From a virus (lineage: Duplodnaviria; Heunggongvirae; Uroviricota; Caudoviricetes): a DNA stretch of 11,544 nt. The notes beneath the pieces are model-generated. The model worked only from the letters and a program-made list of their open reading frames with translations, did no database searches and was not told the DNA's origin. Made by a program: the position numbers and the translations under genes. The DNA lies in IMG/VR virus record IMGVR_UViG_2778261419_000002. One strand, 5' to 3'. Shown piece by piece: positions 1 through 11,544 of the stretch; position 1 is the stretch's first letter, and every line of letters starts with the position of its first letter.

Positions 1-63
1 GTTCTGAATGGTACGGATACTCGCACCGAAAATGTCAGCCAGCTGCTTTTTGTTGACTTCCAT
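1..63 (-). CDS. nohA: Terminase small subunit Nu1-like, N-terminal 21 codons only (gene continues beyond window start)
   Basis: Minus strand translates from ATG at 63..61 as MEVNKKQLADIFGASIRTIQN, matching the N-terminus of lambda Nu1 as I recall it; upstream context GTGGAATGAACA-ATG also resembles lambda. Symbol could equally be nohD/nohQ. Confidence 0.85.
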   Translation of the reverse strand, partial: MEVNKKQLADIFGASIRTIQN

Positions 64-240
64 TGTTCATTCCACGGCCAAAAACAGAGAAAGGAAACGA
101 CAAAGGCCCAAAAGCTCGTTTTCAGCACCTGTCGTTTCCTTTCTTTTCAGGGGGTATTTTAAATAAAAACATTAAGTTACAACGAAGAAGAACGGAAATG
201 CCTTAAACCGGAAAATTTTTATAAATAGCGAAAACCCGCG

Positions 241-252
241 AGGTCGCCGCCC
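241..252. other. cosN cohesive-end sequence of a lambda-type cos site (cosB expected between here and the Nu1 start, about 64..240; cosQ side about 253..275)
   Basis: Plus strand aggtcgccgccc is the reverse complement of GGGCGGCGACCT, the lambda 12-nt cohesive end; flanking minus-strand sequence CGACAGGTTACG|GGGCGGCGACCTCGCGGGTTTTCGCTATTTAT closely resembles the lambda right-end/left-end junction from memory. Confidence 0.7.
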
Positions 253-451
253 CGTAACCTGTCGGATCGCCGGAAAGGACCCGCAAAATGATAATAATTA
301 TCATCTGCATGTCACAACGTGCATCTACGCAATCAAACCACGTCAAATAATCAATTATGACGCAGATATCGTATTAATTGATCTGCATCAACTTAACGTA
401 AAAACAACTTCAGACAATACAAATCAGCGACACTGAATACGGGACAACCTC

Positions 452-685
452 ATGTCAACGAAGAACAGAACCCGCAGAACAACAACCCGCAACATCCGCT
501 TTCCTAACCAAATGATTGAACAAATTAACATCGCTCTTGAGCAAAAAGGGTCCGGGAATTTCTCAGCCTGGGTCATTGAAGCCTGCCGCCGGAGACTGTG
601 CTCAGAAAAAAGAGTTTCTTCTGAAGCAAACAAAGAAAAGAGTGACATTACTGAATTGCTCAGAAAACAGGTCAGACCAGATTGA
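452..685 (+). CDS. ynfO: Small basic protein, probable ribbon-helix-helix DNA-binding fold (YnfO-like, 77 aa)
   Basis: ORF with ATG at 452; Arg/Thr-rich N-terminus followed by IRFPNQMIEQINIALEQKGSGNFSAWVIEACRRRL, which resembles an RHH (CopG/Arc-like) beta-strand plus two helices; weak SD. Size and position match K-12 Qin ynfO as I remember it. Confidence 0.55.
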   Translation: MSTKNRTRRTTTRNIRFPNQMIEQINIALEQKGSGNFSAWVIEACRRRLCSEKRVSSEANKEKSDITELLRKQVRPD

Positions 686-742
686 AGCAATTTAGATAAT
701 CGTGCAGACTACGCCCCCTCATATCACATGGAAGGTTTATCT

Positions 743-1153
743 ATGGATCAGGTAGTCATTTTTAAACAAATATTTGATAAAGTTCGAAACGATTTAAACT
801 ATCAATGGTTTTATTCTGAGCTAAAACGTCACAATGTCTCACATTACATTTACTATTTAGCCACAGAGAATGTTCATATTGTATTAAAAAATGATAATAC
901 AGTGTTATTAAAGGGCCTAAAAAACATTGTGTCTGTCAAATTTTCAAAGGATAGGCATCTTATAGAAACGACCTCTAATAAGCTGAAATCCAGAGAGATC
1001 ACATTTCAGGAATACAGAAGAAACCTTGCTAAAGCAGGAGTTTTTCGGTGGGTTACAAATATCCACGAACAAAAAAGATATTACTATACCTTTGATAATT
1101 CATTACTATTTACTGAAAGCATCCAGAAAACTACACAGATCTTACCACGCTAA
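743..1153 (+). CDS. ydfO: DUF1398-family prophage protein (YdfO/YbcV-like)
   Basis: ORF in track starts at 728, but the ATG at 743 is preceded by GGAAGG at 7-nt spacing, giving a 136-aa product; sequence matches my recollection of the YdfO/YbcV family. Confidence 0.65.
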
Positions 1154-1304
1154 ACCATAACGTCCGGCTTCTCTCACTCCTGAGCCGGACTGCATTGGTT
1201 TAATAAAAACCATCAACAATTGTGATTTAGATATTCGGAACCATTCAAATATAACAAAACCCCGTAAAAACGAGGTTTATGGATAAATTTTATTATTGAA
1301 TACA

Positions 1305-1481
1305 TCAGATTAAATTAATCTTGACATCATAGCTTTCAAGACCCGTCATTTTTTCCCGTGCGGTAAACTGAATACTGGTAACTTCTTTCCCGGTCTTTTT
1401 CTTAAGTTCAATAATTTTTTTTGTTATATATTCAGAAATATCTGCTTCTGCTTTTGTTTTTAAGTTTTCAATATTCATCAT
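1305..1481 (-). CDS. gnsB: GnsA/GnsB-family small protein, 58 aa (absent from the ORF track, which appears to have a size cutoff)
   Basis: Hand translation of minus strand from tandem ATGATG at 1481: MMNIENLKTKAEADISEYITKKIIELKKKTGKEVTSIQFTAREKMTGLESYDVKINLI, stop TGA at 1307..1305; strong SD AAAGAGGAAA immediately upstream; resembles GnsB from memory. Confidence 0.7.
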   Translation of the reverse strand: MMNIENLKTKAEADISEYITKKIIELKKKTGKEVTSIQFTAREKMTGLESYDVKINLI

Positions 1482-1649
1482 TTCCTCTTTTAGTCTGTTA
1501 TGACTTTCCAGTTACACAGTAAGTCGATTATATGGTGCAAACGTGTAAAAGATAAGATGAAACATCGCAATAATCAACATACGATAGTCTAAATTTTACA
1601 CAAACAGACAAAGAGAATTTTCCTGAATTATCAATGCAATAGCATCAAA

Positions 1650-1805
1650 TCAACTCAAGAGCCTTATTGCTGCTTCCAGAATTTCTTCTGAAGTAACATG
1701 TCGATCCGCGGCTACATAAATGACTTTATGATCTCCGGTCAGAGATGGAAACCCTGCGGCCATTACAGTAAGGTGTGTTTTTTCGCCATTTGGATATTCA
1801 CGCAT
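1650..1805 (-). CDS. ynfN: YnfN-like small prophage protein (51 aa from internal ATG; track ORF extends to 1841)
   Basis: ORF MREYPNGEKTHLTVMAAGFPSLTGDHKVIYVAADRHVTSEEILEAAIRLLS; I recall K-12 YnfN as 51 aa starting MREYPNGEK; GGAG lies upstream of this ATG. The longer 63-aa start at 1841 cannot be excluded. Confidence 0.5.
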   Translation of the reverse strand: MREYPNGEKTHLTVMAAGFPSLTGDHKVIYVAADRHVTSEEILEAAIRLLS

Positions 1806-1923
1806 GATGGTGTTAACTCCAGTCATCGCTGGCACTACCACTGCTGGTTCAGAGTTAAAAAAACTATGATTTTTTTCATGATGTTACCGTAGTATGTGAG
1901 TATCCATCGAATAGACACCAAGC

Positions 1924-1961
1924 AAAAAAGCTCCCGAAGGAGCCTTCATTTTCACTTTTTT
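1924..1961. terminator. Candidate bidirectional rho-independent terminator between cspI and ynfN
   Basis: Hairpin GCTCC-CGAA-GGAGC (1930..1943) flanked by an A-run upstream (1924..1929) and a T-rich tract downstream (cttcattttcactttttt), so a U-tract follows the stem on either strand. Confidence 0.45.
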
Positions 1962-2150
1962 AAATCCAACGACAGACGGCTGGCATTTAAGTATTGTGAA
2001 ATATTATCAAATGTAATCATCATTGATTTACAAAAGATACATTTTGCCCCGAAAGGATTCATGTCAGAAACATCAAAAGATGATGTTCTATACTGGGAAC
2101 CATGACAACACGGGCATCTAAAGTGAATATGGTTTGTAATATTGTCTACC

Positions 2151-2363
2151 TCAAAGCGCCACTACATGAACAGCGGCAGGACCTTTAGGTCCGTTCTCAA
2201 TACCAAATTCAACTTCCTGATTCTCAGTTAATGTTTTGAAATCGTTGCTCTGAATTGCTGAGAAATGGACAAACACATCTTTGCTGCCATCTTTCGGCGT
2301 GATGAAACCAAAACCTTTTTCAGGGTTAAACCATTTCACTAAACCAGTCATTTTGTTAGACAT
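2151..2363 (-). CDS. cspI: Cold-shock protein CspI (CspA family, 70 aa)
   Basis: Translation [70 protein letters not shown] contains the RNP1-like motif KGFGFI and the RNP2-like VFVHF of cold-shock domains. Confidence 0.9.
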
Positions 2364-2600
2364 AATTATTACCTTTTGAAGAAATTAGCCCTTGGGCAGA
2401 ATGGTCCGAAAAAAATATCAGAGAGAAAAACCAACAAGGAAATCTCAAGAGGTACAAATAATAAAATTATAACAATGACTGCTTCAGATAAATTTGTAAC
2501 AAACCAGAACACCATTAACGCATGATTAACCACCCATAGCAAGGATTACTTTTGTAAAGAAAAACACAGCAATGAAAGAATAGCTTTATTTATTAATAAA
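2364..2600 (-). promoter_or_regulatory. Probable cspI promoter and long AT-rich 5' UTR
   Basis: About 240 bp of AT-rich non-coding sequence upstream of cspI on the minus strand; CspA-family genes typically have long structured 5' leaders. Exact promoter elements not resolved. Confidence 0.35.
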
Positions 2601-2724
2601 ACGTGTCATTCTGATTAAGACCTTTTATCTTACCCTTAAGATTTCAGGAATTTTGGCTCATGGAAGAGTCCTTTTTATTTAAATTTTACATTCCGCGATG
2701 TAAATGTTCCGATTTAATATTACC

Positions 2725-3752
<1,028 letters not shown>

Positions 3753-3807
3753 GGATATTTATCAGGATGCTACCAATGAAAGATACTGGAAAGCCAACTG
3801 CAAAAAG

Positions 3808-4122
3808 CTAACAACCCGTAATCGAGTTATCTGAACTGTTAATTTTTATGGTATACCGAGCCTCTGAACAGGGTCGCGTTTCTGGCAACAGCTCGTCCCC
3901 TTCACATAACCCGGCAGCAACATCCAGGAAGACCTGTCTGATGCTCCTTCTGGCTGCTGCCTCATAAAACTCCAGCGCGGCACCTTCAACATGGTCCAGC
4001 GAGATGTCCAGGTCAAAAATTTCACCGTCAAAGCGTTCTTTGTCCCGTAACGCTAAAGTTACCGTAACTTTATTCTCAAAATTGCGGATCCCTTTCACAA
4101 TCAGTTCATATTTTTGAGTCAT
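3808..4122 (-). CDS. ydfR: DUF1327-family prophage protein between holin and endolysin (YdfR-like)
   Basis: 104-aa ORF with ATG at 4122 preceded by GGGGAGAG; sits 4 nt downstream of the holin stop; size and position match K-12 ydfR. Confidence 0.65.
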   Translation of the reverse strand: MTQKYELIVKGIRNFENKVTVTLALRDKERFDGEIFDLDISLDHVEGAALEFYEAAARRSIRQVFLDVAAGLCEGDELLPETRPCSEARYTIKINSSDNSITGC

Positions 4123-4126
4123 TGAA

Positions 4127-4342
4127 TTACTCTCCCCGTGCAGCCTTACGCTTGTCTTCTTTAATCTTGAAATAAAGGTTTGTCAGATACGTCAGCATGC
4201 CAAATACCAGACTACCCAATACACCTATTGCCGCCCACTGTGAGGGCGTGACTTTATCGAGCAACTGTAAAAACCAGTAGCCAGCACTGCCTGCAGAGGT
4301 GCTGTAGGCGATGCCCGTTGTTAACTTATCCATGGATTTCAT
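4127..4342 (-). CDS. essQ: Class II holin of the phage 21 S type (pinholin), dual-start motif MKSM
   Basis: 71-aa product [71 protein letters not shown] with two TM segments and a charged C-terminus; strong SD GGAGGTGA before ATG at 4342; a second Met at codon 4 gives the classic antiholin/holin dual start. Track ORF extends further upstream without support. Confidence 0.85.
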
Positions 4343-4430
4343 AGCCTCACCTCCGCAGATAACGGATGGTGTACACGGTTTGGTTCGAAGAAGGAAAGAA
4401 GTTACATTAGCGTAAGGCCCGAACATCTAT

Positions 4431-4463
4431 TCAAAAAGAAAAACGCCAGCAATTATTCTGGCG
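4431..4463 (-). terminator. Rho-independent terminator downstream of the AraC-family gene, immediately upstream of the holin
   Basis: Minus strand reads CGCCAG-AATAATTG-CTGGCG followed by TTTTTCTTTTTG. Confidence 0.55.
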
Positions 4464-4532
4464 TAGCTAAAAATATCGTATAATCTTACACTTCAAAAAA
4501 TAACTTTATAAAATGCCATCACATCATATCTT

Positions 4533-5246
4533 CTAAGAAAATCTTGATAAATATTGGTGCGGAGGCACACCAAAATATCCTCTAAAAACACTTACAAAAT
4601 ATGATGCATTGTCATACCCGCATATTCCCGCCACCTTGCCGACAGTATGGTTACTGTAGATCAATAATCTTTGCGCCATCATCATTCGTTCTTCAAGAAT
4701 TAATTTACTAAACGATAATCCTTCGTCTTTTAATTTTCTTTTTAACAAACTCTCGCTCATATATAATCTTGAAGATATATCACAAAGTCTCCATGACGCT
4801 GAGATATCCGAGTGAATAATAGCCTTAACTTTACAACCTAAGCTATTAAGACTTCCGAACAAAAAACTTTGCACTATTTTCTCTGAAGATAAGACAGCAA
4901 GACATGCAAGTGATATTTGATTTCTAACTACATCCACGGTTTTGCTATCACAATTCAAGCATGCAACCAAGTTCTTTAACAATGAAAAATCTTCACATTC
5001 TACTATCAAGTATGACGGATAAAACCTTCTTACAGAAAAAGGTGAGAGTGTGTAGTTTTTAAAGAAATCATTAACTGTTTTCTCCTCAACATCTACGATC
5101 ATTAGATGATCTGTATTTGACGAAAAAAGATCTTTTAAATTGTATTCAATGAGAACAGTATTTCCTTTTTTAAACAAAATATCTTCTTTACCAATTCGGA
5201 CACCAAACGAGTTCAACACCAAAATGATAGAACATATGTATGGCAT
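4533..5246 (-). CDS. AraC/XylS-family transcriptional regulator (AppY/EnvY/GadX-like), AT-rich
   Basis: C-terminal region LLKRKLKDEGLSFSKLILEERMMMAQRLLIYSNHTVGKVAGICGYDNASYFVSVFRGYFGVPP has the two-HTH AraC signature; ATG at 5246 preceded by AGGTGGA, whereas the track start at 5255 is GTG; base composition is visibly more AT-rich than the flanking phage genes. Confidence 0.8.
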   Translation of the reverse strand: MPYICSIILVLNSFGVRIGKEDILFKKGNTVLIEYNLKDLFSSNTDHLMIVDVEEKTVNDFFKNYTLSPFSVRRFYPSYLIVECEDFSLLKNLVACLNCDSKTVDVVRNQISLACLAVLSSEKIVQSFLFGSLNSLGCKVKAIIHSDISASWRLCDISSRLYMSESLLKRKLKDEGLSFSKLILEERMMMAQRLLIYSNHTVGKVAGICGYDNASYFVSVFRGYFGVPPHQYLSRFS

Positions 5247-5652
5247 ATTATCCACCTGATATCATTGGGGTTACACCAGGTAAGTATAGGTGGAAAATCA
5301 ATATTCGCCAGTTCAACAATAAGGAAAATCTCATTGCATCACAACTATAAAACCATGTGTTTAACTCACAAAAAACAAATCATTAAACTAATCTGTTATA
5401 TTATAATATCTGCGTGCAATAATAATATTATATGCTCTTAATATTCACTTGAAATATCTTCATATAAAAACAGATTGAATAAAATCTTTTGGGGCTGGTA
5501 TGTTTACCAACATTAAATTGCATCTCAATGTTTTCTTTAGCGTGAACAGGATTTTTATAAAAACTGACACTATGAGCATCATAGCGTAGTTTTTACGATT
5601 GTAAATATCCTGCATACAGGAACTCATCACTTTCAGATGATATCGCATACAG

Positions 5653-6612
5653 TTAATTCACCATCAGTCTTAGAGCCAGTTCTTCCGGATAGGGATCGAA
5701 GTAATTCTGTGTAAGCAAGTAATCATTAGGATACTCACCCAGATAATGCTTCAGCAGAGTCAACGGCGCAAGAAGAGGCAATGTGCCAAAGCGATAGTTA
5801 AGTATAACCTCGCTCAACTCTTTACGCTGGCGTGTACTTAAGTAATTACTAAAATACCCCTGTATATGCATCAGCACATTCGTGTGATTTTTACGTGATG
5901 CTGGTTTTCTGAGAATCGCCATCAGATTATCACGATACACCTCAAAGTATGATTCAAGGTCCGCCCACTCGTGTATTGCAGCCACAAATGGTCCCATATC
6001 TTTATAGCCTGCCTGGCTATGCGCCAACAACTGAAGCTTATAACGACTATGAAAAGCTAATAACTCTCTTCTTGATAATTTCTCCTTGTAAAGGTGATTG
6101 AGCTCATGCAAAGCAAAAACTCTTTCAATAAAATTCTCACGAAGCACTGGATCATGTAATCGCCCATCCTCTTCAACCGGTAGCCAGGAAAACTTTTCCA
6201 TCAAAGTGCTCGTAAATAGTCCCACTCCATCTTTACGACCTCGATTACCATTTTCATCATAGACACGCACGCGCTCCATGCCACAGCTGGGAGATTTAGC
6301 ACAAACCACAAACCCCGATACATCCTTTAATTTGTCCATATAAGAACGACTAAACTCTGTCATTCTCTCTGTCACATCCTCATTCTGGTCGTGGCTGAAA
6401 CACATCCGTATATTTCCTTGCTTCGAGCGCACAAGTCGTAGAGCAGGACGCGGAACTGGCAGCCCTATAGCCATTTCCGGACATACTGGTCTGAATGTTA
6501 CCCATTCCACTAATTTGTCCATTAAAAAGTCATCTCTTTTGTGACCACCATCAAAACGAACAGCAGAACCGCCCAAACAACCGCTGATCCCAATCACAGG
6601 TTTTTTTATCAT
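5653..6612 (-). CDS. DUF523/DUF1722 fusion protein (TudS-like 2-thiouracil desulfidase family N-domain plus YbgA-like C-domain)
   Basis: 319-aa ORF; N-terminus KPVIGISGCLGGSAVRFDGG ... VCPEMAIGLPVPRP matches the conserved Cys-containing DUF523 motifs as I recall them; strong SD GGGGGAGG before ATG at 6612. Confidence 0.75.
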   Translation of the reverse strand: MIKKPVIGISGCLGGSAVRFDGGHKRDDFLMDKLVEWVTFRPVCPEMAIGLPVPRPALRLVRSKQGNIRMCFSHDQNEDVTERMTEFSRSYMDKLKDVSGFVVCAKSPSCGMERVRVYDENGNRGRKDGVGLFTSTLMEKFSWLPVEEDGRLHDPVLRENFIERVFALHELNHLYKEKLSRRELLAFHSRYKLQLLAHSQAGYKDMGPFVAAIHEWADLESYFEVYRDNLMAILRKPASRKNHTNVLMHIQGYFSNYLSTRQRKELSEVILNYRFGTLPLLAPLTLLKHYLGEYPNDYLLTQNYFDPYPEELALRLMVN

Positions 6613-6804
6613 TTCCTCCCCCTTGACTAATTCATTAACACATAAACTTTGTAGTGCACGGACTAAATTGCCTTTCTGGCTTCATCACTGACAATTTTTC
6701 TGTTATTGACTATTCCTAATATAGTAGGAAAGTTCTTTAAGTGATCGGTCGTACTCATCTATCTTTCATACTTACTCTCAACTATCAAAAGTACAGGATT
6801 TATT

Positions 6805-7329
6805 ATGAAGTTATGGCCTGTGTTGACTGGCATTGCACTCTCTTTCACTCTTATAGCATGTAAGGCCCCGACACCACCTAAAGGTGTGCAGCCGATTACA
6901 AATTTTGACGCCAACCGCTACCTCGGAAAATGGTATGAAATAGCTCGCCTCGAGAACTGGTTCGAACGTGGTCTGGAACAGGTCAGCGCTACTTATGAAA
7001 AACGGAACGACGGAGGGATTCGCGTACTTAACCGTGGATACGATCCAACGAAAAACAAATGGAGCGAGAGCGAAGGTAAAGCATACTTTACTGGAGATAC
7101 TAAAACTGCAGCGTTGAAAGTTTCGTTTTTTGGCCCCTTCTATGGTGGCTATAATGTAATCAAACTGGATGATGAGTATAAGTATGCTCTTGTCAGTGGT
7201 CCGAACAGAGAATACCTATGGATTCTGGCAAGGACCCAAACTATTCCAGATAATGTAAAAGCAGACTATGTGCGTACCGCTCAAAAGTTGGGATTCAATG
7301 TCAATGAACTATTATGGGTTAAACAATAA
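6805..7329 (+). CDS. Bacterial lipocalin Blc-like outer-membrane lipoprotein
   Basis: 174-aa ORF; signal peptide with lipobox LIAC then K at +2; motifs NFDANRYLGKWYEIARLENWFERG and KVSFFGPFYGGYNVI...YLWILART closely parallel E. coli Blc; SD AGGA 6 nt before ATG. Confidence 0.85.
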   Translation: MKLWPVLTGIALSFTLIACKAPTPPKGVQPITNFDANRYLGKWYEIARLENWFERGLEQVSATYEKRNDGGIRVLNRGYDPTKNKWSESEGKAYFTGDTKTAALKVSFFGPFYGGYNVIKLDDEYKYALVSGPNREYLWILARTQTIPDNVKADYVRTAQKLGFNVNELLWVKQ

Positions 7330-7354
7330 AATCCCCACCCGAAATGATACTTAT

Positions 7355-7384
7355 TAGAAAAAAACCAGCCTTTGGGGAGGCTGG
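7355..7384 (-). terminator. tR'-type rho-independent terminator downstream of Q (also lies just 3' of the convergent blc-like gene)
   Basis: Minus strand reads CCAGCCT-CCCCAA-AGGCTGG followed by TTTTTTTCT; located about 100 nt after the Q stop codon. Confidence 0.6.
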
Positions 7385-7484
7385 CTAAATCAGGAAACAA
7401 GCTGTTATATGATAATAACTACGTTGCGATTCCAACATTTAAAATGTTAGACTAATGAAAATCAGACAGCAACTTTTCCTTTAA
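7385..7484 (-). promoter_or_regulatory. Candidate Q-dependent late promoter (pR'-like) and Q-utilisation region
   Basis: Position between the Q stop and the terminator matches lambdoid pR' architecture; minus strand has TTGCTG-17nt-TAACAT, a possible -35/-10 pair. Assignment is positional, hexamers are weak. Confidence 0.3.
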
Positions 7485-7862
7485 TTATTTCGAACAATCA
7501 GCATCCATCTCCAATCGGAGATCCAACACCATCAGCATGCCCTCCACTACGCCCTCAGCTTTCTGGAGCATCCTGCCAACCCAACAATCAGATCGCCCAT
7601 GCTTACGTGCAAGCGCCATAAAAGTCATGCCGCCGACATAATAGTCCACCAATAAATCATGTAAATCGCTGTTGTTTTTTTTCAGGCGAGCCATACATTC
7701 ACAAATGATCATCGCGTCATCGTCACAGCATTGCGGACGAGATCTTACTTTTGAAGGAATTAATCCCTTAAAACCGGCGGCAATGGACGACCAGGTCACA
7801 TCTTCATGATTATTAGCCGCCCATGCCCCCCAACGCTCAAGAACCATCTGAATATCACGCAT
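7485..7862 (-). CDS. Late-gene antiterminator Q, phage 82 / QuuD-like family
   Basis: Translation from ATG at 7862: [76 protein letters not shown]... matches my recollection of DLP12 QuuD; track start at 7877 is a TTG extension; GGAG upstream of the ATG. Confidence 0.8.
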
Positions 7863-7879
7863 CAACTTACTCCACAAAA

Positions 7880-8929
7880 TTAGGCCAGCACACCAATTGC
7901 CAGCGCGCGATCGATAAATCGAAAAATCAGCTCCAGTTGGGAGCCATACTTCTCTTCAAATGCCACGGTATCCGTATGCAACTCGTCGTGATGCTTTCTG
8001 CACAAAGGCAACACAAAGAGATCATGTGCTTTGGTTCCCATTCCGCCCTGCCCGTGACCAATCAGATGATGCGGATCGTCGGCTGGCATACCGCAGCAAG
8101 CACACGGCTGTGTCTTAACCCAGCGTGTGTATTTCTCCTTAACCCAACGGTGACGTTTAGGCAGCTTCATGAAAGATTCCGGAGACTCTGGATCAACGGT
8201 GATGCTTACCACCGTCTTTTCTTGTGATGGGTTTTGTTGCTGGTGGGCGTGAGGCAACGGTGCAAGATTTTTTGTGCGCTGTTTCAGTATGCTGGTGGCG
8301 GTCTGCTCTCCCGGTACGATGTCGCTTTCACGGTACATTGAGCGGATTTTTTCCGCACGCAACCCCAGCGAACGACGTAATACCGCTTCCGGTAGCGCGT
8401 CCGCCACCTGATTGCGGACCGCCCACCAGGATAATTCAGCCAGAGATAATTCACGCTCCTGCGTACCGCTTATTGCGTGACCGATGACGTCAATCATCCA
8501 TGCTGACAGGTTTTGATGAGCTAGTTGCTCGAGTGATTCGGATGTCTGGTCACGCAGCTGGTTGTCGCAGTGCCAGCACAACACCATTGCGCCGGTACCA
8601 TAACGGTGAATGACGGTTTCGCTGTGATGATAATCGCCGTGTGGCCACTGGCAGGATTTAATATGGCGCAACAGCCAGTCAGACAATGCACCAGCACCAC
8701 CAGCAGCACGAATCACCCGTGCGTTACTGAAAAACGGCAGCAATGTTTTGTCTTCCACCAGCGGCTGGCGAGCGGCAGGAACGACCCCGGACGGCAGATT
8801 ACGCATGCTTTTCGGTTCCGGCTCCACCAGTAACCGGGTATTGTGGAATACCGGCATGGGTTCACGGCCCGGCTTAACGATCACCAGCCCGAGTTCCGGT
8901 ACCAGAACAGGTCGAAGTAATACCCGCAC
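7880..8929 (-). CDS. ydfU: DUF968-family prophage protein with C-terminal Cys/His (HNH-like) motif (YdfU-like)
   Basis: 349-aa ORF; start is GTG at 8929 with a strong SD (TGGAGGTAAC) 5 nt upstream; C-terminus contains CACCG...[10 protein letters not shown]...CRKHHDELH. Confidence 0.75.
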
Positions 8930-8930
8930 G

Positions 8931-9209
8931 TTACCTCCAGATGCGTTGCTGGAATGTGCGGGACGGACGCGGTGGGCGTTCGGAGTAAGGAAGCCTGACG
9001 GAGATTATCCAGTGACGGTAGTCGAGGCTAAGGGCTTTTTGAACCTCGCATCCGCGCCTGCGGTAACACTGAATGAGCCATTCGGCCTGTTCTTCAGTGC
9101 ATGGGGGATGCTGGTACCAGTCTGACTTAAATGCGTGAGAATACCGCTCGTGCGTGTGGGCAAGAACGGTCGAATTATCATGATTGTAATATTTTGCGTT
9201 GCGTGCCAT
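8931..9209 (-). CDS. Hypothetical 92-aa prophage protein, translationally coupled to the DUF968 gene
   Basis: ORF with ATG at 9209 and SD-like GGAG upstream; stop TAA at 8933..8931 lies 1 nt before the GTG start of the next gene; His/Cys-containing segment HTHERYSH...PPCTEE...QCYRRRGC. No family recognised. Confidence 0.45.
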   Translation of the reverse strand: MARNAKYYNHDNSTVLAHTHERYSHAFKSDWYQHPPCTEEQAEWLIQCYRRRGCEVQKALSLDYRHWIISVRLPYSERPPRPSRTFQQRIWR

Positions 9210-9275
9210 CGGTTTTCTCCGGTGGCACGGTGTTACTCAGCGGGAGTTCAGCCCCGCGCAAGATTGTAGATGAGT

Positions 9276-9527
9276 TTATTCTTCTGAAAAAGCAGAAAAG
9301 CCAGCTTTTATTCCGATCTCTTTCAATGCCTGTAATGAAGTGACAAACTCACCGTCGCGCAAGATAAATCCGTCCGTCACTCGGGCATCCACATAATTAA
9401 TTAACGCAGCCCCATTTTTTTGCAAACACACAATGCGGTAATGACTAGCAATATTTCCATTTTCAACGCACACAGCATAGAGGCCATCTTCACAAAAAAT
9501 TTTACGCAGTTCTTCGATGTTCATCAT
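9276..9527 (-). CDS. rem: Small prophage protein, Rem-like (83 aa)
   Basis: 83-aa ORF starting with tandem ATGATG preceded by GGAAGGA; size and position (between hokD and the DUF968 gene) match K-12 Qin rem as I remember it; sequence identity not verifiable here. Confidence 0.5.
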   Translation of the reverse strand: MMNIEELRKIFCEDGLYAVCVENGNIASHYRIVCLQKNGAALINYVDARVTDGFILRDGEFVTSLQALKEIGIKAGFSAFSEE

Positions 9528-9643
9528 CAGAATCCTTCCGGATAATTAGCTCTCCCCTTTAAGGGACCATCCCTCTTATCCCTGCGCGCTACTTAAGTAT
9601 TTTTGATTCTATTCCGGCACCATCCAGAACTTCAAATGCGTTG

Positions 9644-9675
9644 AAAATAAAAACAAAAACCCGCCGAAGCGGGTT
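9644..9675 (-). terminator. Rho-independent terminator of the relB-relE-hokD operon
   Basis: Minus strand reads AACCCGC-TTCG-GCGGGTT followed by TTTTGTTTTTATTTT. Confidence 0.6.
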
Positions 9676-9743
9676 AAGTGCGGGTGCGTTGAGGATGCCT
9701 GCCACATCAGAGGTGGCGAGGGATTTCTCACTCGCCGAGTCTC

Positions 9744-9899
9744 TTACTCCTCAGGTTCGTAAGCTGTGAAGACAGCGACCTCCGTCTGGCCGGTTCGGAT
9801 TCGTACCTCGCAGAGGTCTTTCCTCGTTACCAGTGCCGTCACTATGACGGTTAAACAGATGACGATCAGGGCGATTAACATCGCCTTTTGCTGCTTCAT
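9744..9899 (-). CDS. hokD: Hok-family type I toxin HokD (RelF), 51 aa (absent from the ORF track)
   Basis: Hand translation of minus strand: MKQQKAMLIALIVICLTVIVTALVTRKDLCEVRIRTGQTEVAVFTAYEPEE, a typical Hok single-TM peptide; SD AGGAG upstream of ATG at 9899. Confidence 0.85.
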   Translation of the reverse strand: MKQQKAMLIALIVICLTVIVTALVTRKDLCEVRIRTGQTEVAVFTAYEPEE

Positions 9900-9970
9900 A
9901 GCCTGCTTCTCCTGTCAACGCAAAGCAGAAGTGTCACCTTCGGTGCGAAACAGAGATGTCATGCTTTGGT

Positions 9971-10258
9971 TCAGAGAATGCGTTTGACCGCCTCGCTATA
10001 TACTTCCGAGCGTTCTCTTTTCCCAACAGAAATCACGAAAACGACAACTTTCTCGTCTATAACCTGGTATACAAGGCGATAGCCTGAAGACCGGAGCTTA
10101 ATCTTGTAACAATCAGGCATACCACGGAGCTTGTTTGCTTCAATCCGGGGTGACTCAAGTACTTCAACCAGCTTCTTTTTCAACTGTTCACGTACCGTCG
10201 AGCCCAGCTTTCGCCATTCCTTTAGTGCCCGCTCGTCAAAATCCAGAAAATACGCCAT
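9971..10258 (-). CDS. relE: Type II toxin RelE (ribosome-dependent mRNA endonuclease)
   Basis: 95-aa ORF MAYFLDFDERALKEWRKLGSTVREQLKKKLVEVLESPRIEANKLRGMPDCYKIKLRSSGYRLVYQVIDEKVVVFVISVGKRERSEVYSEAVKRIL; ATG overlaps the relB stop (ATGA). Confidence 0.9.
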   Translation of the reverse strand: MAYFLDFDERALKEWRKLGSTVREQLKKKLVEVLESPRIEANKLRGMPDCYKIKLRSSGYRLVYQVIDEKVVVFVISVGKRERSEVYSEAVKRIL

Positions 10259-10497
10259 CAGAGTTCATCCAGCGTCACACGTACTGGCTTAGGATTACGA
10301 AGCCGTTCTTTCACTATCTCCACAAGTTCAGCATCTTCATCACTCAGGAGTGTCTGTTTGAACGGCAAGCGTTCATTGTCAGCGATATACTCGAGCATGA
10401 GACGAAGCGCTTCAGAAGGAGTTACACCCATTTTTTCAAGCGCGGCGTAAGAACGCGCTTTAAGTTCATCGTCAATACGCAGGTTAATGCTACCCAT
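10258..10497 (-). CDS. relB: Type II antitoxin RelB (RHH repressor)
   Basis: 79-aa ORF MGSINLRIDDELKARSYAALEKMGVTPSEALRLMLEYIADNERLPFKQTLLSDEDAELVEIVKERLRNPKPVRVTLDEL; SD GAGGTG upstream; immediately 5' of relE. Confidence 0.9.
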   Translation of the reverse strand: MGSINLRIDDELKARSYAALEKMGVTPSEALRLMLEYIADNERLPFKQTLLSDEDAELVEIVKERLRNPKPVRVTLDEL

Positions 10498-10508
10498 GTC
10501 TTACACCT

Positions 10509-10534
10509 CTTGTAATTACAAATGTCATTACAAG
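10509..10534 (-). promoter_or_regulatory. relBE operator (relO) inverted repeats overlapping the operon promoter
   Basis: Perfect palindrome TTGTAATTACAA (10510..10521) followed by a related half-palindrome TGTCATTACAAG, directly upstream of the relB start; consistent with RelB/RelE autoregulation sites. Confidence 0.55.
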
Positions 10535-10827
10535 TATCGCACTACAACATGCTTAGGGCAAGTCACGAAGGAAGTCAGAAAGTAGTCGTAAGAACGGTGA
10601 TCACTGTCCGCTTTCTGCCAGGAGCAGCCATTGCTAAGTCCATCCTGTATTGTGCAGGTCAGCTCGTTTTTAAAGAGTCCGGCCATCATCTTACTGGTAC
10701 AGACACCATATACTTTGTGACGGTCAGGCTACATATGCACAACTCAACTTATTCATCTATTTTTTGCTTTAGCATGTCAGTGTTGCTTTCTCGTCGGCGG
10801 GTGAGCGGTGACCTGACCTGTCGATAA
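10522..10827 (+). CDS. ydfV: Doubtful 101-aa ORF (YdfV-like annotation); coding status uncertain
   Basis: Length and position (between relB and flxA, + strand) match the K-12 ydfV annotation as I recall it, but there is no convincing SD, it overlaps the relB promoter/operator, and the translation has no recognisable features. Confidence 0.25.
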   Translation: MSLQVSHYNMLRASHEGSQKVVVRTVITVRFLPGAAIAKSILYCAGQLVFKESGHHLTGTDTIYFVTVRLHMHNSTYSSIFCFSMSVLLSRRRVSGDLTCR

Positions 10828-10979
10828 AGGAACGTAACACGTTTTATGCAACACCCGCATGCGGCAGAAAATTATTGCCGAACGTTTACCCCTGTCAACA
10901 AGCTTTACTTTCTGAGGCGCGCCAGCCCGCGAGGAAAACAATCTGAACATCAAACAATTAATGACACAAGAAATACGAT

Positions 10980-11006
10980 TAAAGATTTTTTTGTTCATGC
11001 CGATAG
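10980..11006 (+). promoter_or_regulatory. Sigma-28 (FliA) class 3 flagellar promoter of flxA
   Basis: TAAAGATT (10980..10987), 11-nt spacer, GCCGATAG (10999..11006), matching the sigma-28 consensus TAAAGTTT-N11-GCCGATAA; SD AAGGAG follows. Confidence 0.6.
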
Positions 11007-11029
11007 TGCTTTTTTAAAAGGAGAAATCT

Positions 11030-11362
11030 ATGTCTGTCACAATTCAGGGAAATACCTCAACCGTTATTTCAAACAACTCCGCCCCGGAAGGAACATCAGA
11101 AATAGCCAAAATCACAAGACAAATTCAGGTGCTGACTGAAAAGCTTGGGAAAATCTCATCGGAAGAGGGGATGACGACACAGCAGAAAAAAGAAATGGCT
11201 GCATTGGTACAGAAGCAAATTGAAAGCCTCTGGGCTCAACTGGAGCAGTTGTTAAGGCAGCAGGCAGAGAAAAAGAATGAAGACGCGACAGTTCAGCCTG
11301 ATAAAAAAGAAGAGAAAAAAGACGATACAAATACCGCTGGCACCATTGATATTTACGTCTAA
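11030..11362 (+). CDS. flxA: FlxA, FliA-regulated protein (110 aa)
   Basis: ORF MSVTIQGNTSTVISNNSAPEGTSEIAKITRQIQVLTEKLGKISSEEGMTTQQKKEMAALVQKQIESLWAQLEQLLRQQAEKKNEDATVQPDKKEEKKDDTNTAGTIDIYV with SD AGGAG and an upstream sigma-28 promoter. Confidence 0.85.
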   Translation: MSVTIQGNTSTVISNNSAPEGTSEIAKITRQIQVLTEKLGKISSEEGMTTQQKKEMAALVQKQIESLWAQLEQLLRQQAEKKNEDATVQPDKKEEKKDDTNTAGTIDIYV

Positions 11363-11376
11363 GTGACAGCCGTATT

Positions 11377-11400
11377 GTGGCCCTCATCGGGCCACTTTTC
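11377..11400 (+). terminator. Rho-independent terminator of flxA
   Basis: GTGGCCC-TCATC-GGGCCAC followed by TTTTCG, 15 nt after the flxA stop. Confidence 0.55.
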
Positions 11401-11544
11401 GCCATCAGCCTTTTCTTTAAAGACATATTATCTTTGTATCATTTCTGATAGTTAACATTACAAGATATGAATCGCCACGGGTTTAACAGACACCTCAGAG
11501 TCATTTAAGATGGCTTAAAGAGAGGTGCCCATGAGCGGTAAGCG

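Follow-up and report, generated by a model that had tools for sequence, protein, structure and literature searches.

Lipocalin genes carried by lambdoid prophages are already known from RefSeq, phage records, PHROGs and a 2020 survey of lambda morons. That survey covered 19 Lambda-like coliphages of the gut; more than 50% of them had blc as a moron, and the lambda morons were dominated by membrane proteins, including sie; the origin, promoter and function of blc were not analysed (Mathieu et al. 2020, PMC6969025). In the literature on prophage and lambdoid lipocalins, we found no study of what a phage blc does, and literature searches returned no expression or phenotype data on a prophage lipocalin and no mention of its RefSeq accessions. 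E. coli Blc is anchored in the outer membrane, faces the periplasm and has fatty acids, lysophospholipids and tetrapyrroles as ligands (PMC8177097). Its own biological role is unsettled (PMC8177097; PMC9113575), and host blc is up 3.6-fold on entry into stationary phase (PMC2241611).

Two further systems resemble the gene analysed here in organization. Bor and Lom of lambda are envelope protein morons that are expressed from the prophage, and their genes lie among the late genes, against the direction of late transcription, as does that of the phage lipocalin. Bor has no sequence relation to the lipocalin and lies downstream of Rz (opposite Rz in Lambda_2E9), whereas the lipocalin gene is between Q and the holin gene; unlike the phage lipocalin, Bor has a proven phenotype, serum resistance (summary in PMC6969025). 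In Stenotrophomonas maltophilia, the lipocalin-family gene Smlt2367 belongs to the sigmaE/ChrR singlet-oxygen regulon, is co-regulated with CFA-synthase-like lipid-modifying genes and is up 165-fold on deletion of chrR (PMC11832516). To this background we add that the phage gene belongs to a different lineage from host blc, that it probably forms with RudS a two-gene block from a MerR-controlled stress locus, and a hypothesis for the role of the moron in light or oxidative envelope stress.

A Blc-type lipoprotein gene opposite the late genes

The window, by which we mean the whole 11,544-nucleotide stretch of DNA that was analysed, contains an ORF of 174 amino acids plus stop at 6805..7329 on the plus strand. 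The full-length product matched lipocalin profiles above their curated cut-offs: Pfam PF08212 (Lipocalin_2; E=7.5e-43; 146.4 bits, cut-off 24) and, over residues 1-174, NCBIfam NF007786 "outer membrane lipoprotein Blc" (312.6 bits, cut-off 267). The solved E. coli Blc structures 3MBT and 1QWD matched at E about 1e-66, and residues 20-174 aligned without gaps to 3MBT (E=8e-67), a sequence match that points to the eight-stranded barrel. All 38 invariant residues of the family are kept. The RefSeq entry for the ORF is WP_000780584.1, named "lipocalin family protein" or "blc", and the PHROGs entry is phrog_2809.

A PROSITE-style lipoprotein rule matched the signal peptide MKLWPVLTGIALSFTLIA followed by Cys (6805..6861, plus strand), with Lys2 in the n-region and the lipobox LIAC within GIALSFTLIAC, residues 9-19; the codon for Cys19 is at 6859-6861. 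The residue at +2 is Lys. Under the Lol rule, a lipoprotein without Asp at +2 is sorted to the outer membrane, and the product is thus predicted to be lipidated at Cys19 and Lol-sorted to the outer membrane. E. coli Blc (1QWD, 2ACO, 3MBT) is of the same family and length, and likewise has a Cys19 lipobox and no Asp at +2.

The lipocalin is the sole plus-strand gene of its block. On the minus strand lie the antiterminator Q (7485..7877, 130 aa; Pfam PF06530, E=8e-51; the structures of phage 21 Q match distantly, E=5e-9), RudS, an AraC-like gene, and the genes for holin, lysozyme and Rz. RudS (5653..6612; TudS desulfidase plus DUF1722, Pfam PF04463 and PF08349; annotated "YbgA family") is the divergent partner of the lipocalin. 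The third gene of the cargo block (4533..5255) encodes an AraC/XylS-family, YdeO/GadX-like regulator (Pfam HTH_18/HTH_AraC; phrog_1450), whose best NCBIfam match, YdeO, scored 112 bits, far under the cut-off of 348. A hairpin scan placed a terminator-like hairpin at 4443..4464 on the minus strand, between this gene and the holin gene. The original prediction of a Blc-type lipoprotein with an LIAC lipobox and no Asp at +2, encoded on the strand opposite Q and the late genes, was borne out by the profiles, the structures, the signal-peptide check and the ORF list.

The same prediction had the 3' end of the lipocalin gene sharing a tR' hairpin. A tR'-like intrinsic terminator is indeed present at 7363..7386, 34-57 nt past the lipocalin stop, with a 9-bp stem of 5 GC pairs, a 6-nt loop and a T-run, and it is conserved in phage alleles. 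The terminator scan called it on the minus strand only. In the plus direction the stem folds at -13.3 kcal/mol but is followed by CUAAAUC, and the scan gave no clear plus-strand terminator for the lipocalin mRNA. A search for pR' downstream of Q returned only weak or oddly spaced candidates within 7409-7472 (TTGGAA-15-TATCAT, TTTAAA-20-TATTAT and TTGCTG-17-TAACAT). The sole Rfam match was the cspA thermoregulator upstream of cspI, with nothing by the lipocalin.

The phage lipocalin groups apart from host blc

All but one of the 5426 complete E. coli genomes have host blc (5425), with the gene order ampC-blc-sugE. It escaped a "distant" blastn search that used the phage ORF as query, the two genes being only 63% identical in DNA, and was reached by way of the CMY-2-linked Citrobacter blc. 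Alignment with E. coli Blc put the divergence at 59% amino acid identity (58.6%, or 62% in the mature part), and both the signal peptide and the neighbouring genes differ. In a neighbor-joining tree with 300 bootstraps, ampC/sugE-linked lipocalins formed one clade (98) and MerR-linked lipocalins, including those of phages, another (97); the phage alleles formed a clade of their own (100), whose sister group had a bootstrap below 55. The closest relatives of the phage lipocalin are MerR-linked lipocalins of Enterobacter, Leclercia, Buttiauxella, Klebsiella, Cedecea and Scandinavium, at 74-79% amino acid identity. The nearest chromosomal DNA is just 65-74% identical to the phage gene, which indicates that the capture was not recent, and in E. 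coli our searches found the phage lipocalin lineage in prophages, with no chromosomal copy elsewhere.

From these sequence comparisons, we conclude that the phage lipocalin is not copied from host blc and belongs to a second, MerR-linked enterobacterial lineage. As the window has neither ampC nor sugE, and as the gene falls in the other clade, it does not qualify as an orthologue of ampC-linked blc, and "blc" calls in prophages should not be read as such. The original prediction was right that the host already has a chromosomal blc and that the phage gene is a different one. Its term "paralogue" holds for a second Blc-type gene on a phage, but not for a duplicate of host blc, the gene being of a distinct lineage and probably acquired with RudS.

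The phage gene could nonetheless act as an extra dose of host blc, doing the same job under the same control (RpoS, stationary phase) and giving lysogens a higher Blc dosage. The original prediction had essentially this role in mind. Membership of the same NCBIfam subfamily, above its cut-off, and retention of the 38 invariant residues are what such a copy would be expected to show, and the 3.6-fold rise of host blc (PMC2241611) also speaks for this reading. We consider it unlikely, given the 59% identity and the separate, well-supported clade. In addition, several enterobacteria, such as Buttiauxella izardii (loci L021 and L027), have lipocalins of both lineages, which argues for non-redundant roles.

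A lipocalin-RudS pair probably captured as one block

In the MerR-linked lineage, the lipocalin gene is divergent from a gene for a MerR/MlrA-like regulator. Among the 16 closest bacterial loci that were examined, 15 have a MerR-family neighbour (loci L006-L012 and L015-L024, the exception being L023). The operon of this regulator includes RudS, a tRNA 4-thiouridine desulfidase, in Enterobacter, Leclercia, Buttiauxella and Raoultella. Among the ten loci L015-L024, nine have a lipocalin divergent from MerR, (transthyretin-like gene) and RudS, and the tenth, L023, is linked to RudS with no MerR hit. RudS proteins of these ten loci are 70-72% identical to the phage RudS.

The phage locus shares several features with these bacterial loci. 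The leader MKLWPV...AC-K is common to the phage and MerR-linked lipocalins and is not found in E. coli Blc, an upstream box (box 1, below) is shared as well, and so is the RudS linkage in the case of the Enterobacter group. In contrast to the MerR-linked loci, the phage has no transthyretin-like gene and no MerR-like regulator, with no MerR homologue found in either the window or the phage loci. The phage intergenic region is about 75 bp longer, on the RudS side, and the flanks are Q and the AraC-like gene. Since the phage has the same divergent pair without the regulator, the pair appears to have been captured as one block. RudS was found in 1136 of the 5426 genomes and the lipocalin in 1145, with matching identity bands.

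Taken together, our preferred reading, which we hold to be probable, is that the lipocalin is a lysogenic-conversion moron of the MerR-linked lineage that was captured with RudS as one block. The block would now fill, together with the AraC-like regulator, the Q-to-holin cargo slot of lambdoid phages, and it would represent a natural "regulator-deleted" version of a conserved, uncharacterised enterobacterial locus. The phage RudS has 92% amino acid identity to its Lambda_2E9 homologue, and the DNA match statistics of Lambda_2E9 equal those of phage 1H12, which is the source of the tested RudS_vir; E. coli has been reported to lack RudS (PMC11417400).

Conserved boxes upstream of the lipocalin gene

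The Shine-Dalgarno sequence AGGA (6795..6798, plus strand) lies 6 nt before the ATG and is invariant in the alignment. Alignment and a lenient scan identified a proximal -10-like box, TCATACTT (6766..6773, plus strand; hexamer CATACT at 6767-6772), 32-39 nt upstream of the ATG. This box is the phage counterpart of a family-wide CTACACTT box found 27-40 nt upstream of the ATG in ampC/sugE-linked blc genes, including that of E. coli, and in MerR-linked lipocalins. Such a counterpart to the host box is consistent with an extra-dose copy under host-like control, but the phage version has lost the T with which the hexamer begins, and the base at that place varies among phage alleles, which argues against that possibility.

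Multiple alignment with MerR-lipocalin intergenic regions revealed a second conserved element, box 1 (GACTATTCCTAATATAGTAGGAA, 6708..6730). It aligns with GAATAyTCTCAATATACTACGAAT of the MerR-lipocalin intergenic region in more than 10 genera, and the pattern AATATASTASGAA, 75-87 nt before the ATG, is confined to the phage and MerR-linked loci. We conclude from this conservation that box 1 is likely a cis-element common to phage and regulator-linked loci, with putative regulator binding. The box contains TATAGT (6720-6725, plus strand) and, towards RudS, TATATT (6723..6718, minus strand), and it could serve either strand, including to drive RudS. Both upstream boxes are visible by multiple alignment only; when the intergenic DNA of the phage was compared with the bacterial loci by BLAST, homology was confined to the two coding regions.

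A TATAGT with a weak -35, reminiscent of the stationary-phase control of host blc, had been described for this region. The hexamer is present at 6720..6725 and its -35 candidates are weak, with 2-3 of 6 matches, as described; the link to stationary phase is weak because box 1 is specific to the MerR-linked lineage and reads TATATT towards RudS, and the element in common with host blc is the proximal box instead. A consensus promoter scan of both strands of 6613-6804 listed nothing, both candidate boxes falling below threshold, and a lenient scan of the same region gave several candidates at 7-8 of 12. With regard to the own promoter and terminator that mark a moron, the gene has two conserved -10-like boxes, no consensus-grade promoter and no plus-strand terminator. 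An inverted repeat in box 1, TTCCTA-N6-TAGGAA, was considered as an operator and rejected, IdasGreatGrand having TATGAA at that place.

Distribution and selection

Several strains, S1 among them, have a Qin-type prophage at ydfJ to which the window is 99.9% identical. Parts of the window are matched in 5364 genomes, whereas the lipocalin is found in 1145 of the 5426, about one in five. Twelve sequenced lambdoid phages carry the gene, annotated "Lipocalin Blc", and isolated free phages show the same order of Q, lipocalin, RudS, regulator and holin. Between the same ydfU and essQ flanks, the Qin prophage of K-12 has another Q plus cspB/cspF. The gene is therefore present or absent at a module junction among collinear phages, as expected of a moron. 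The gut-coliphage blc moron (Lambda_2E9, 1H12) is the same gene, with 96-97% amino acid identity and the same layout; the window copy differs in carrying R52W and in residing in a defective Qin-type prophage. These results support the original prediction of a Bor-like moron, a status already reported for phage blc (PMC6969025).

R52W (codon 52 TGG, Trp, 6958..6960) is the only difference of the window from residues conserved at 95% or more, the position being Arg in 121 of 127 relatives, including intact phages. An exact 31-mer with the R52W codon is present in 401 of 5426 genomes. Matching prophages are degraded, with truncated portal and tail-fibre assembly genes and an integrase cut by IS1, and some strains have IS insertions in the AraC-like gene and RudS. 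With a substitution at a near-invariant Arg and a defective prophage, the window copy may be impaired. These same observations would fit a lipocalin that is passive or decaying cargo, hitch-hiking in a defective Qin-type prophage with no fitness contribution now. We regard this as quite unlikely: the ORF is intact and identical in about 400 genomes, its dN/dS against functional-phage alleles is 0.1-0.23, and the lipobox, Shine-Dalgarno sequence and upstream boxes are kept. Across the lipocalin alleles, dN/dS was 0.08-0.23, and we conclude that they are under purifying selection.

Strong purifying selection also bears on whether the protein serves the phage rather than a host envelope trait, for example in superinfection exclusion, where it would mask a receptor in the outer membrane on its periplasmic side, in the manner of T5 Llp or Cor. 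A predicted outer-membrane lipoprotein of a temperate phage, oriented for prophage expression, would be suited to this, and membrane proteins including sie are prominent among lambda morons (PMC6969025). However, the lipocalin is 74-79% identical to chromosomal, non-phage lipocalins and keeps all but one family-conserved residue, and zero PADLOC defence-model matches were obtained for the lipocalin, RudS and the AraC-like protein. Conservation and purifying selection point to a conserved role in ligand binding more than to an exclusion factor, which would evolve fast, and we view a phage-directed function as highly improbable.

Expression and possible role in the lysogen

Under our preferred reading of a lysogenic-conversion moron, transcription of the lipocalin in the lysogen would start from a weak sigma70/sigmaS-type promoter of its own, at 6767-6772 and/or 6720-6725. 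By analogy with E. coli Blc, the product may face the periplasm from an outer-membrane anchor, bind a hydrophobic ligand and so aid the envelope under stress. Following induction, Q-modified RNA polymerase that started downstream of Q would pass the minus-strand terminator and run antisense across the lipocalin gene, which would probably be silenced, similarly to lambda bor.

The type of stress may be suggested by the bacterial relatives. Clusters of MerR, SnoaL, SDR, amine oxidase, DUF1365 and CFA-synthase genes adjoin relatives of the phage gene, and the Smlt2367 regulon parallels these MerR/CFA-synthase clusters, although the type of regulator differs and the parallel is drawn from gene context. 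From Pseudomonas LitR regulons and the S. maltophilia ChrR regulon, we infer by analogy that such loci may be induced by light or singlet oxygen. We therefore offer a speculative hypothesis, to which we give a small chance of being right, that the divergent lipocalin and RudS genes are a regulator-less fragment of a MerR/LitR-type light or photo-oxidative-stress locus that raises the tolerance of lysogens to near-UV, blue light or photosensitised oxidation. RudS would erase the UVA-sensitive s4U mark of tRNA, and the lipocalin would act in the periplasm as a trap for tetrapyrrole photosensitisers or oxidised lipids. If true, E. coli living outside the gut would receive from the phage a kind of "sunscreen" module. 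The species is otherwise without either gene: our searches returned no chromosomal copy of the lipocalin lineage beyond prophages, and RudS is absent according to PMC11417400. The Pseudomonas LitR regulons include phrB, SDR, FAD-oxidoreductase and UfaM genes, and a PhrB-LitR-RudS operon.

A second Blc-type lipoprotein gene

The plus-strand ORF at 6805..7329, with a Shine-Dalgarno AGGA 6 nt 5' of its ATG, encodes a 174-aa protein that matches Pfam Lipocalin_2 (E=7.5e-43), scores 312.6 bits against a curated cut-off of 267 for the NCBIfam subfamily 'outer membrane lipoprotein Blc', and aligns gap-free to E. coli Blc crystal structures over residues 20-174 (E ~1e-66). On these matches, which agree with the original prediction, we have very little doubt that the product is a Blc-type lipocalin. 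Its N-terminus, MKLWPVLTGIALSFTLIAC, passes a PROSITE-style lipoprotein rule, with Lys2, an h-region without charge, the lipobox L-I-A-C, Cys19 and Lys at +2, so that the claimed lipobox without Asp at +2 withstood signal-peptide analysis. Under the Lol-avoidance rule, Asp at +2 keeps a lipoprotein in the inner membrane. Because the +2 residue is Lys and not Asp, outer-membrane sorting is predicted.

A DNA search with the phage ORF as query gave no match to chromosomal blc. Using a Citrobacter-derived blc adjoining blaCMY-2 as a bridge query, we found ampC-blc-sugE in 5425 of 5426 complete E. coli genomes, in line with the claim that the host has its own blc. The phage lipocalin and E. coli Blc share 58.6% amino acid identity over the full length and 62% in the mature part, with 63% DNA identity between the genes, whereas the window protein is 96-97% identical to the alleles of free phages. 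The phage gene is therefore not the chromosomal blc itself. With all the elements of the earlier description found in the window, we conclude that the original observation is confirmed and its interpretation essentially right.

The phage lipocalin belongs to a MerR-linked lineage

The nearest non-phage proteins (74-80% identity) are encoded by genes that adjoin neither ampC nor sugE. A MerR-family regulator carrying MlrA-type domains is divergent from the lipocalin gene in Cedecea, Scandinavium and Klebsiella, and stands at the head of a cluster of SnoaL - SDR - amine oxidase - DUF1365 - CFA-synthase-like - DUF2878. A wider survey, in which one genome per species was scanned and neighbours were then sought by tblastn, identified ten further loci (73-79% identity) in Enterobacter spp., Leclercia, Buttiauxella, Huaxiibacter and Raoultella. 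In nine of these, the lipocalin faces away from MerR - (transthyretin-like) - RudS; the Huaxiibacter locus keeps the RudS link and gave no MerR match in the tblastn of neighbours. RudS from the ten loci is 70-72% identical to the left neighbour of the phage lipocalin.

True Blc orthologues, the sugE/ampC-linked genes, are 56-61% identical to the phage lipocalin. A neighbour-joining tree of mature proteins (300 bootstraps) separated a sugE/ampC-linked clade (98% support) from a MerR-linked clade (97%), and the phage alleles formed a 100% group within the latter, without a resolved sister. Since Buttiauxella izardii carries both lineages (L021 and L027), they are paralogues, whose roles are presumably distinct. 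Thus, the proposed phage Blc paralogue is indeed a second Blc-family gene, but it does not come from host blc. By DNA search, the second lineage is absent from E. coli chromosomes except in prophages.

A truncated, Enterobacter-like lipocalin copy accompanied by MerR-UraH-RudS also occurs on a few plasmids. In one, an Enterobacter-like segment of the E. coli 0H23 plasmid (NZ_CP081685.1, 164819-171147), the truncated gene is divergent from MerR - hydroxyisourate hydrolase-like - RudS, and the locus is therefore mobile on plasmids too.

Probable capture of lipocalin and RudS as one block

The YbgA family gene to the left (5653..6612, minus strand) has the RudS architecture, a TudS-type desulfidase domain plus DUF1722, with Cys12 and Cys44 present. 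RudS_vir of phage 1H12 removed tRNA 4-thiouridine when tested, less efficiently than bacterial enzymes (Jamontas et al. 2024, PMC11417400), and a Pseudomonas RudS shortened the UVA-induced growth lag of E. coli (PMC11417400). The same paper places RudS genes in light-responsive MerR/LitR operons and notes the absence of RudS from E. coli (PMC11417400); the E. coli genomes that do have it, about 21%, therefore owe it to prophages alone.

Window 5535-7500 matches 1H12 and Lambda_2E9 DNA equally, at 91.1%, and RudS of Lambda_2E9 is 92% identical to that of the window. RudS DNA was present in 1136 genomes, with identity bands of 407/619/110 versus 414/621/110 for the lipocalin. The shared bacterial synteny, the similar divergence of the two genes and their joint distribution indicate that both were probably captured as one block, with loss of the regulator. 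Against any sampled chromosome the phage block is 65-74% identical in nucleotides, in coding regions only, and the capture was therefore not recent.

Only phage versions of the locus have an AraC/XylS-family regulator gene (4533..5255, minus strand) between RudS and the holin, cut by IS1 in some genomes. Its best matches, all far below threshold, are YdeO, GadX and HilD. It is possibly a member of the prophage-encoded Psr/PatE family, the regulators of acid resistance and type III secretion in EHEC (PMC10877973).

Distribution

The 772-bp lipocalin feature occurred in 1145 of 5426 genomes, in at most four copies per genome and nearly always on the chromosome. It was also found in 12 lambdoid phage genomes (IdasGreatGrand, Lambda_2E9, 1H12 and relatives), all arranged as Q - lipocalin - YbgA - regulator - holin. 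'Lipocalin Blc' is already the name given to it in several phage records, and PHROGs lists it as phrog_2809, function unknown; a literature search found no functional study of a prophage or phage lipocalin. Mathieu et al. 2020 (PMC6969025) listed blc as a moron in more than 50% of 19 gut Lambda-like phages. Annotation and literature thus both have the feature, as a common lambda moron, and its novelty is therefore low. What we add is the paralogue assignment, the capture with RudS as one block, a conserved but orphaned upstream box, and caution on promoter and terminator assignments. A 2113-bp contig binned as 'Candidatus Nanosynbacter sp.' (JARKOR010000135.1) encodes the lipocalin (97% aa) and Q (98% aa), and is almost certainly a fragment of an E. 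coli prophage that was binned wrongly.

Two conserved upstream boxes

Multiple alignment of lipocalin upstream regions revealed two conserved boxes. Box 1 (6708-6730; GACTATTCCTAATATAGTAGGAA in the phage, GAATAyTCTCAATATACTACGAAT in bacteria) holds the TATAGT noted previously, at 6720..6725, and the -35 was weak as described, candidates matching at 2-3 of 6 positions. Of 94 fetched loci, 18 retain its core pattern, each a single time and at a constant distance to the ATG; these are phage and MerR-linked loci, and no ampC/sugE-linked locus among the 94 has the pattern. The opposite strand of box 1 reads TATATT, facing RudS in the phage and the MerR operon in bacteria, and the box may serve either strand.

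Box 2, the 8-mer CTACACTT, precedes the start codon by 27-40 nt in both lineages (2967-2974 in L013, 2906-2913 in L005, ~9961-9974 in L015-L023), and E. coli blc and the CMY-2-linked copy have it too. It is kept across many enterobacterial genera though the remaining intergenic DNA does not align. It resembles the extended sigmaS -10 consensus (CTATACTT) and probably represents a sigmaS-like -10 element that was ancestral to the family. The phage counterpart, TCATACTT (6766-6773), has C as its first hexamer base, which is A in Lambda_2E9; among phage alleles TATAGT is invariant and box 2 degenerate.

Host blc is described as stationary-phase-induced (Bishop 1995, as cited in PMC8177097), and it rose 3.6-fold in stationary phase in O157 Sakai (PMC2241611). 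The proposal that the phage gene shares this control would therefore be better anchored in box 2, which is sigmaS-like and shared with host blc, than in TATAGT, on which it had been based, although box 2 is degenerate in the phage. That the gene simply supplies an extra, RpoS-controlled dose of Blc, as the shared box might suggest, we consider unlikely.

Gene layout and late transcription

The window is the right-hand portion of a Qin-type lambdoid prophage inserted at ydfJ in E. coli, and positions 1-11468 are 99.9% identical to E. coli strain S1 and about 40 further complete genomes. The lipocalin is the sole plus-strand gene from Q to the holin, on the strand opposite Q and the late genes, as predicted. 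The minus strand carries relBE, hokD, rem, a DUF968 protein gene (7880..8929), antiterminator Q (7485..7877; PF06530, E=8e-51; distantly similar to phage 21 Q), then, beyond the lipocalin, the P21-type holin, YdfR, lysozyme, Rz and cspI. K-12 Qin has a different Q and cspB/cspF between the same ydfU and essQ flanks, which argues that Q and its cargo are an exchangeable module in a classical moron slot.

Because the lysis genes lie downstream of Q on its strand, gene geometry implies that late transcripts must cross 7329->6805 antisense to the lipocalin. In Lambda_2E9, bor similarly lies opposite Rz. A tR' hairpin shared with the lipocalin 3' end had been proposed; the stem-loop is present at 7363..7386 (9-bp stem, then a T-run), but is called a terminator on the minus strand only, the plus-strand stem (-13.3 kcal/mol) being followed by CUAAAUC. 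Between the AraC-like gene and the holin there is another terminator-like hairpin on the minus strand, 4464..4443.

Q-type antiterminators act at a promoter directly downstream of their own gene. Several weak promoter candidates fall within the 98 nt from the Q stop (7485) to the minus-strand terminator (7386..7363), a segment that is conserved in phage alleles and, as RNA, folds unusually well (z = -3.7 against shuffled controls). Within 7400..7484 (minus strand) is a 9-bp palindrome, UCUAACAUU-UUA-AAUGUUGGA (~7432-7452), and this stretch may be part of a Q-utilisation site or a short leader RNA.

Selection and possible role

Between window and phage alleles, dN/dS was 0.08-0.23 for the lipocalin and 0.11-0.24 for RudS, and we regard decaying cargo as a rather improbable description of the gene. 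Among residues conserved at 95% or more, the window protein departs at position 52 only, with Trp (TGG, 6958-6960, plus strand) where 121 of 127 relatives, intact free phages included, have Arg (motif ENRFERG). The exact 31-mer around this codon occurs in 401 complete E. coli genomes, which fits the band of copies with at least 99% identity. Since the surrounding prophage is defective, the window allele may be impaired, and Trp52 could be a hypomorphic allele fixed in a defective Qin-type prophage.

We favour, with some confidence, a prophage-expressed envelope-stress lipocalin. Anchored in the outer membrane and facing the periplasm, it would bind a hydrophobic ligand and support the envelope under stress; it would derive, together with RudS, from a locus under MerR control, and convergent late transcription would shut it down on induction. 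E. coli Blc binds fatty acids and lysophospholipids (PMC8177097; see also PMC9113575), heme (Kd 1.4 uM) and hematoporphyrin (0.14 nM; PMC8177097), and its own ligand and role are unsettled. That it is a phage-directed exclusion lipoprotein we consider highly improbable; PADLOC gave no match.

In a speculative reading to which we give little weight, the lipocalin-RudS pair might be what remains, on a phage, of a regulon for light and photo-oxidative stress. Pseudomonas class II LitR regulons include phrB, SDR, FAD-oxidoreductase and the CFA-synthase-like UfaM (PMC9758184), as well as a PhrB-LitR-RudS operon (PMC11417400), and the S. maltophilia sigmaE/ChrR regulon combines a lipocalin with CFA synthases (PMC11832516). 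For the enterobacterial MerR/MlrA-like regulator and the phage gene, these systems are an analogy only. Tetrapyrrole binding by Blc would suit photosensitiser sequestration under such a reading.

Other features of the window

The last 76 bases (11469..11544) are unlike the best genomic matches, which all end at base 11468, suggesting a possible rearrangement or insertion boundary directly after flxA. An Rfam scan of the window found the cspA thermoregulator (2124..2508, minus strand; 114 bits), covering cspI (2151..2363) and its 5' leader, and no other family. The Rz-like gene (2725..3222, minus strand), intact here and annotated as frameshifted in strain S1, contains a nested out-of-frame ORF (2775..3047, minus strand) for a small lipoprotein with lipobox LTSC, the counterpart of K-12 Qin rzoQ in a nested o-spanin/i-spanin pair.
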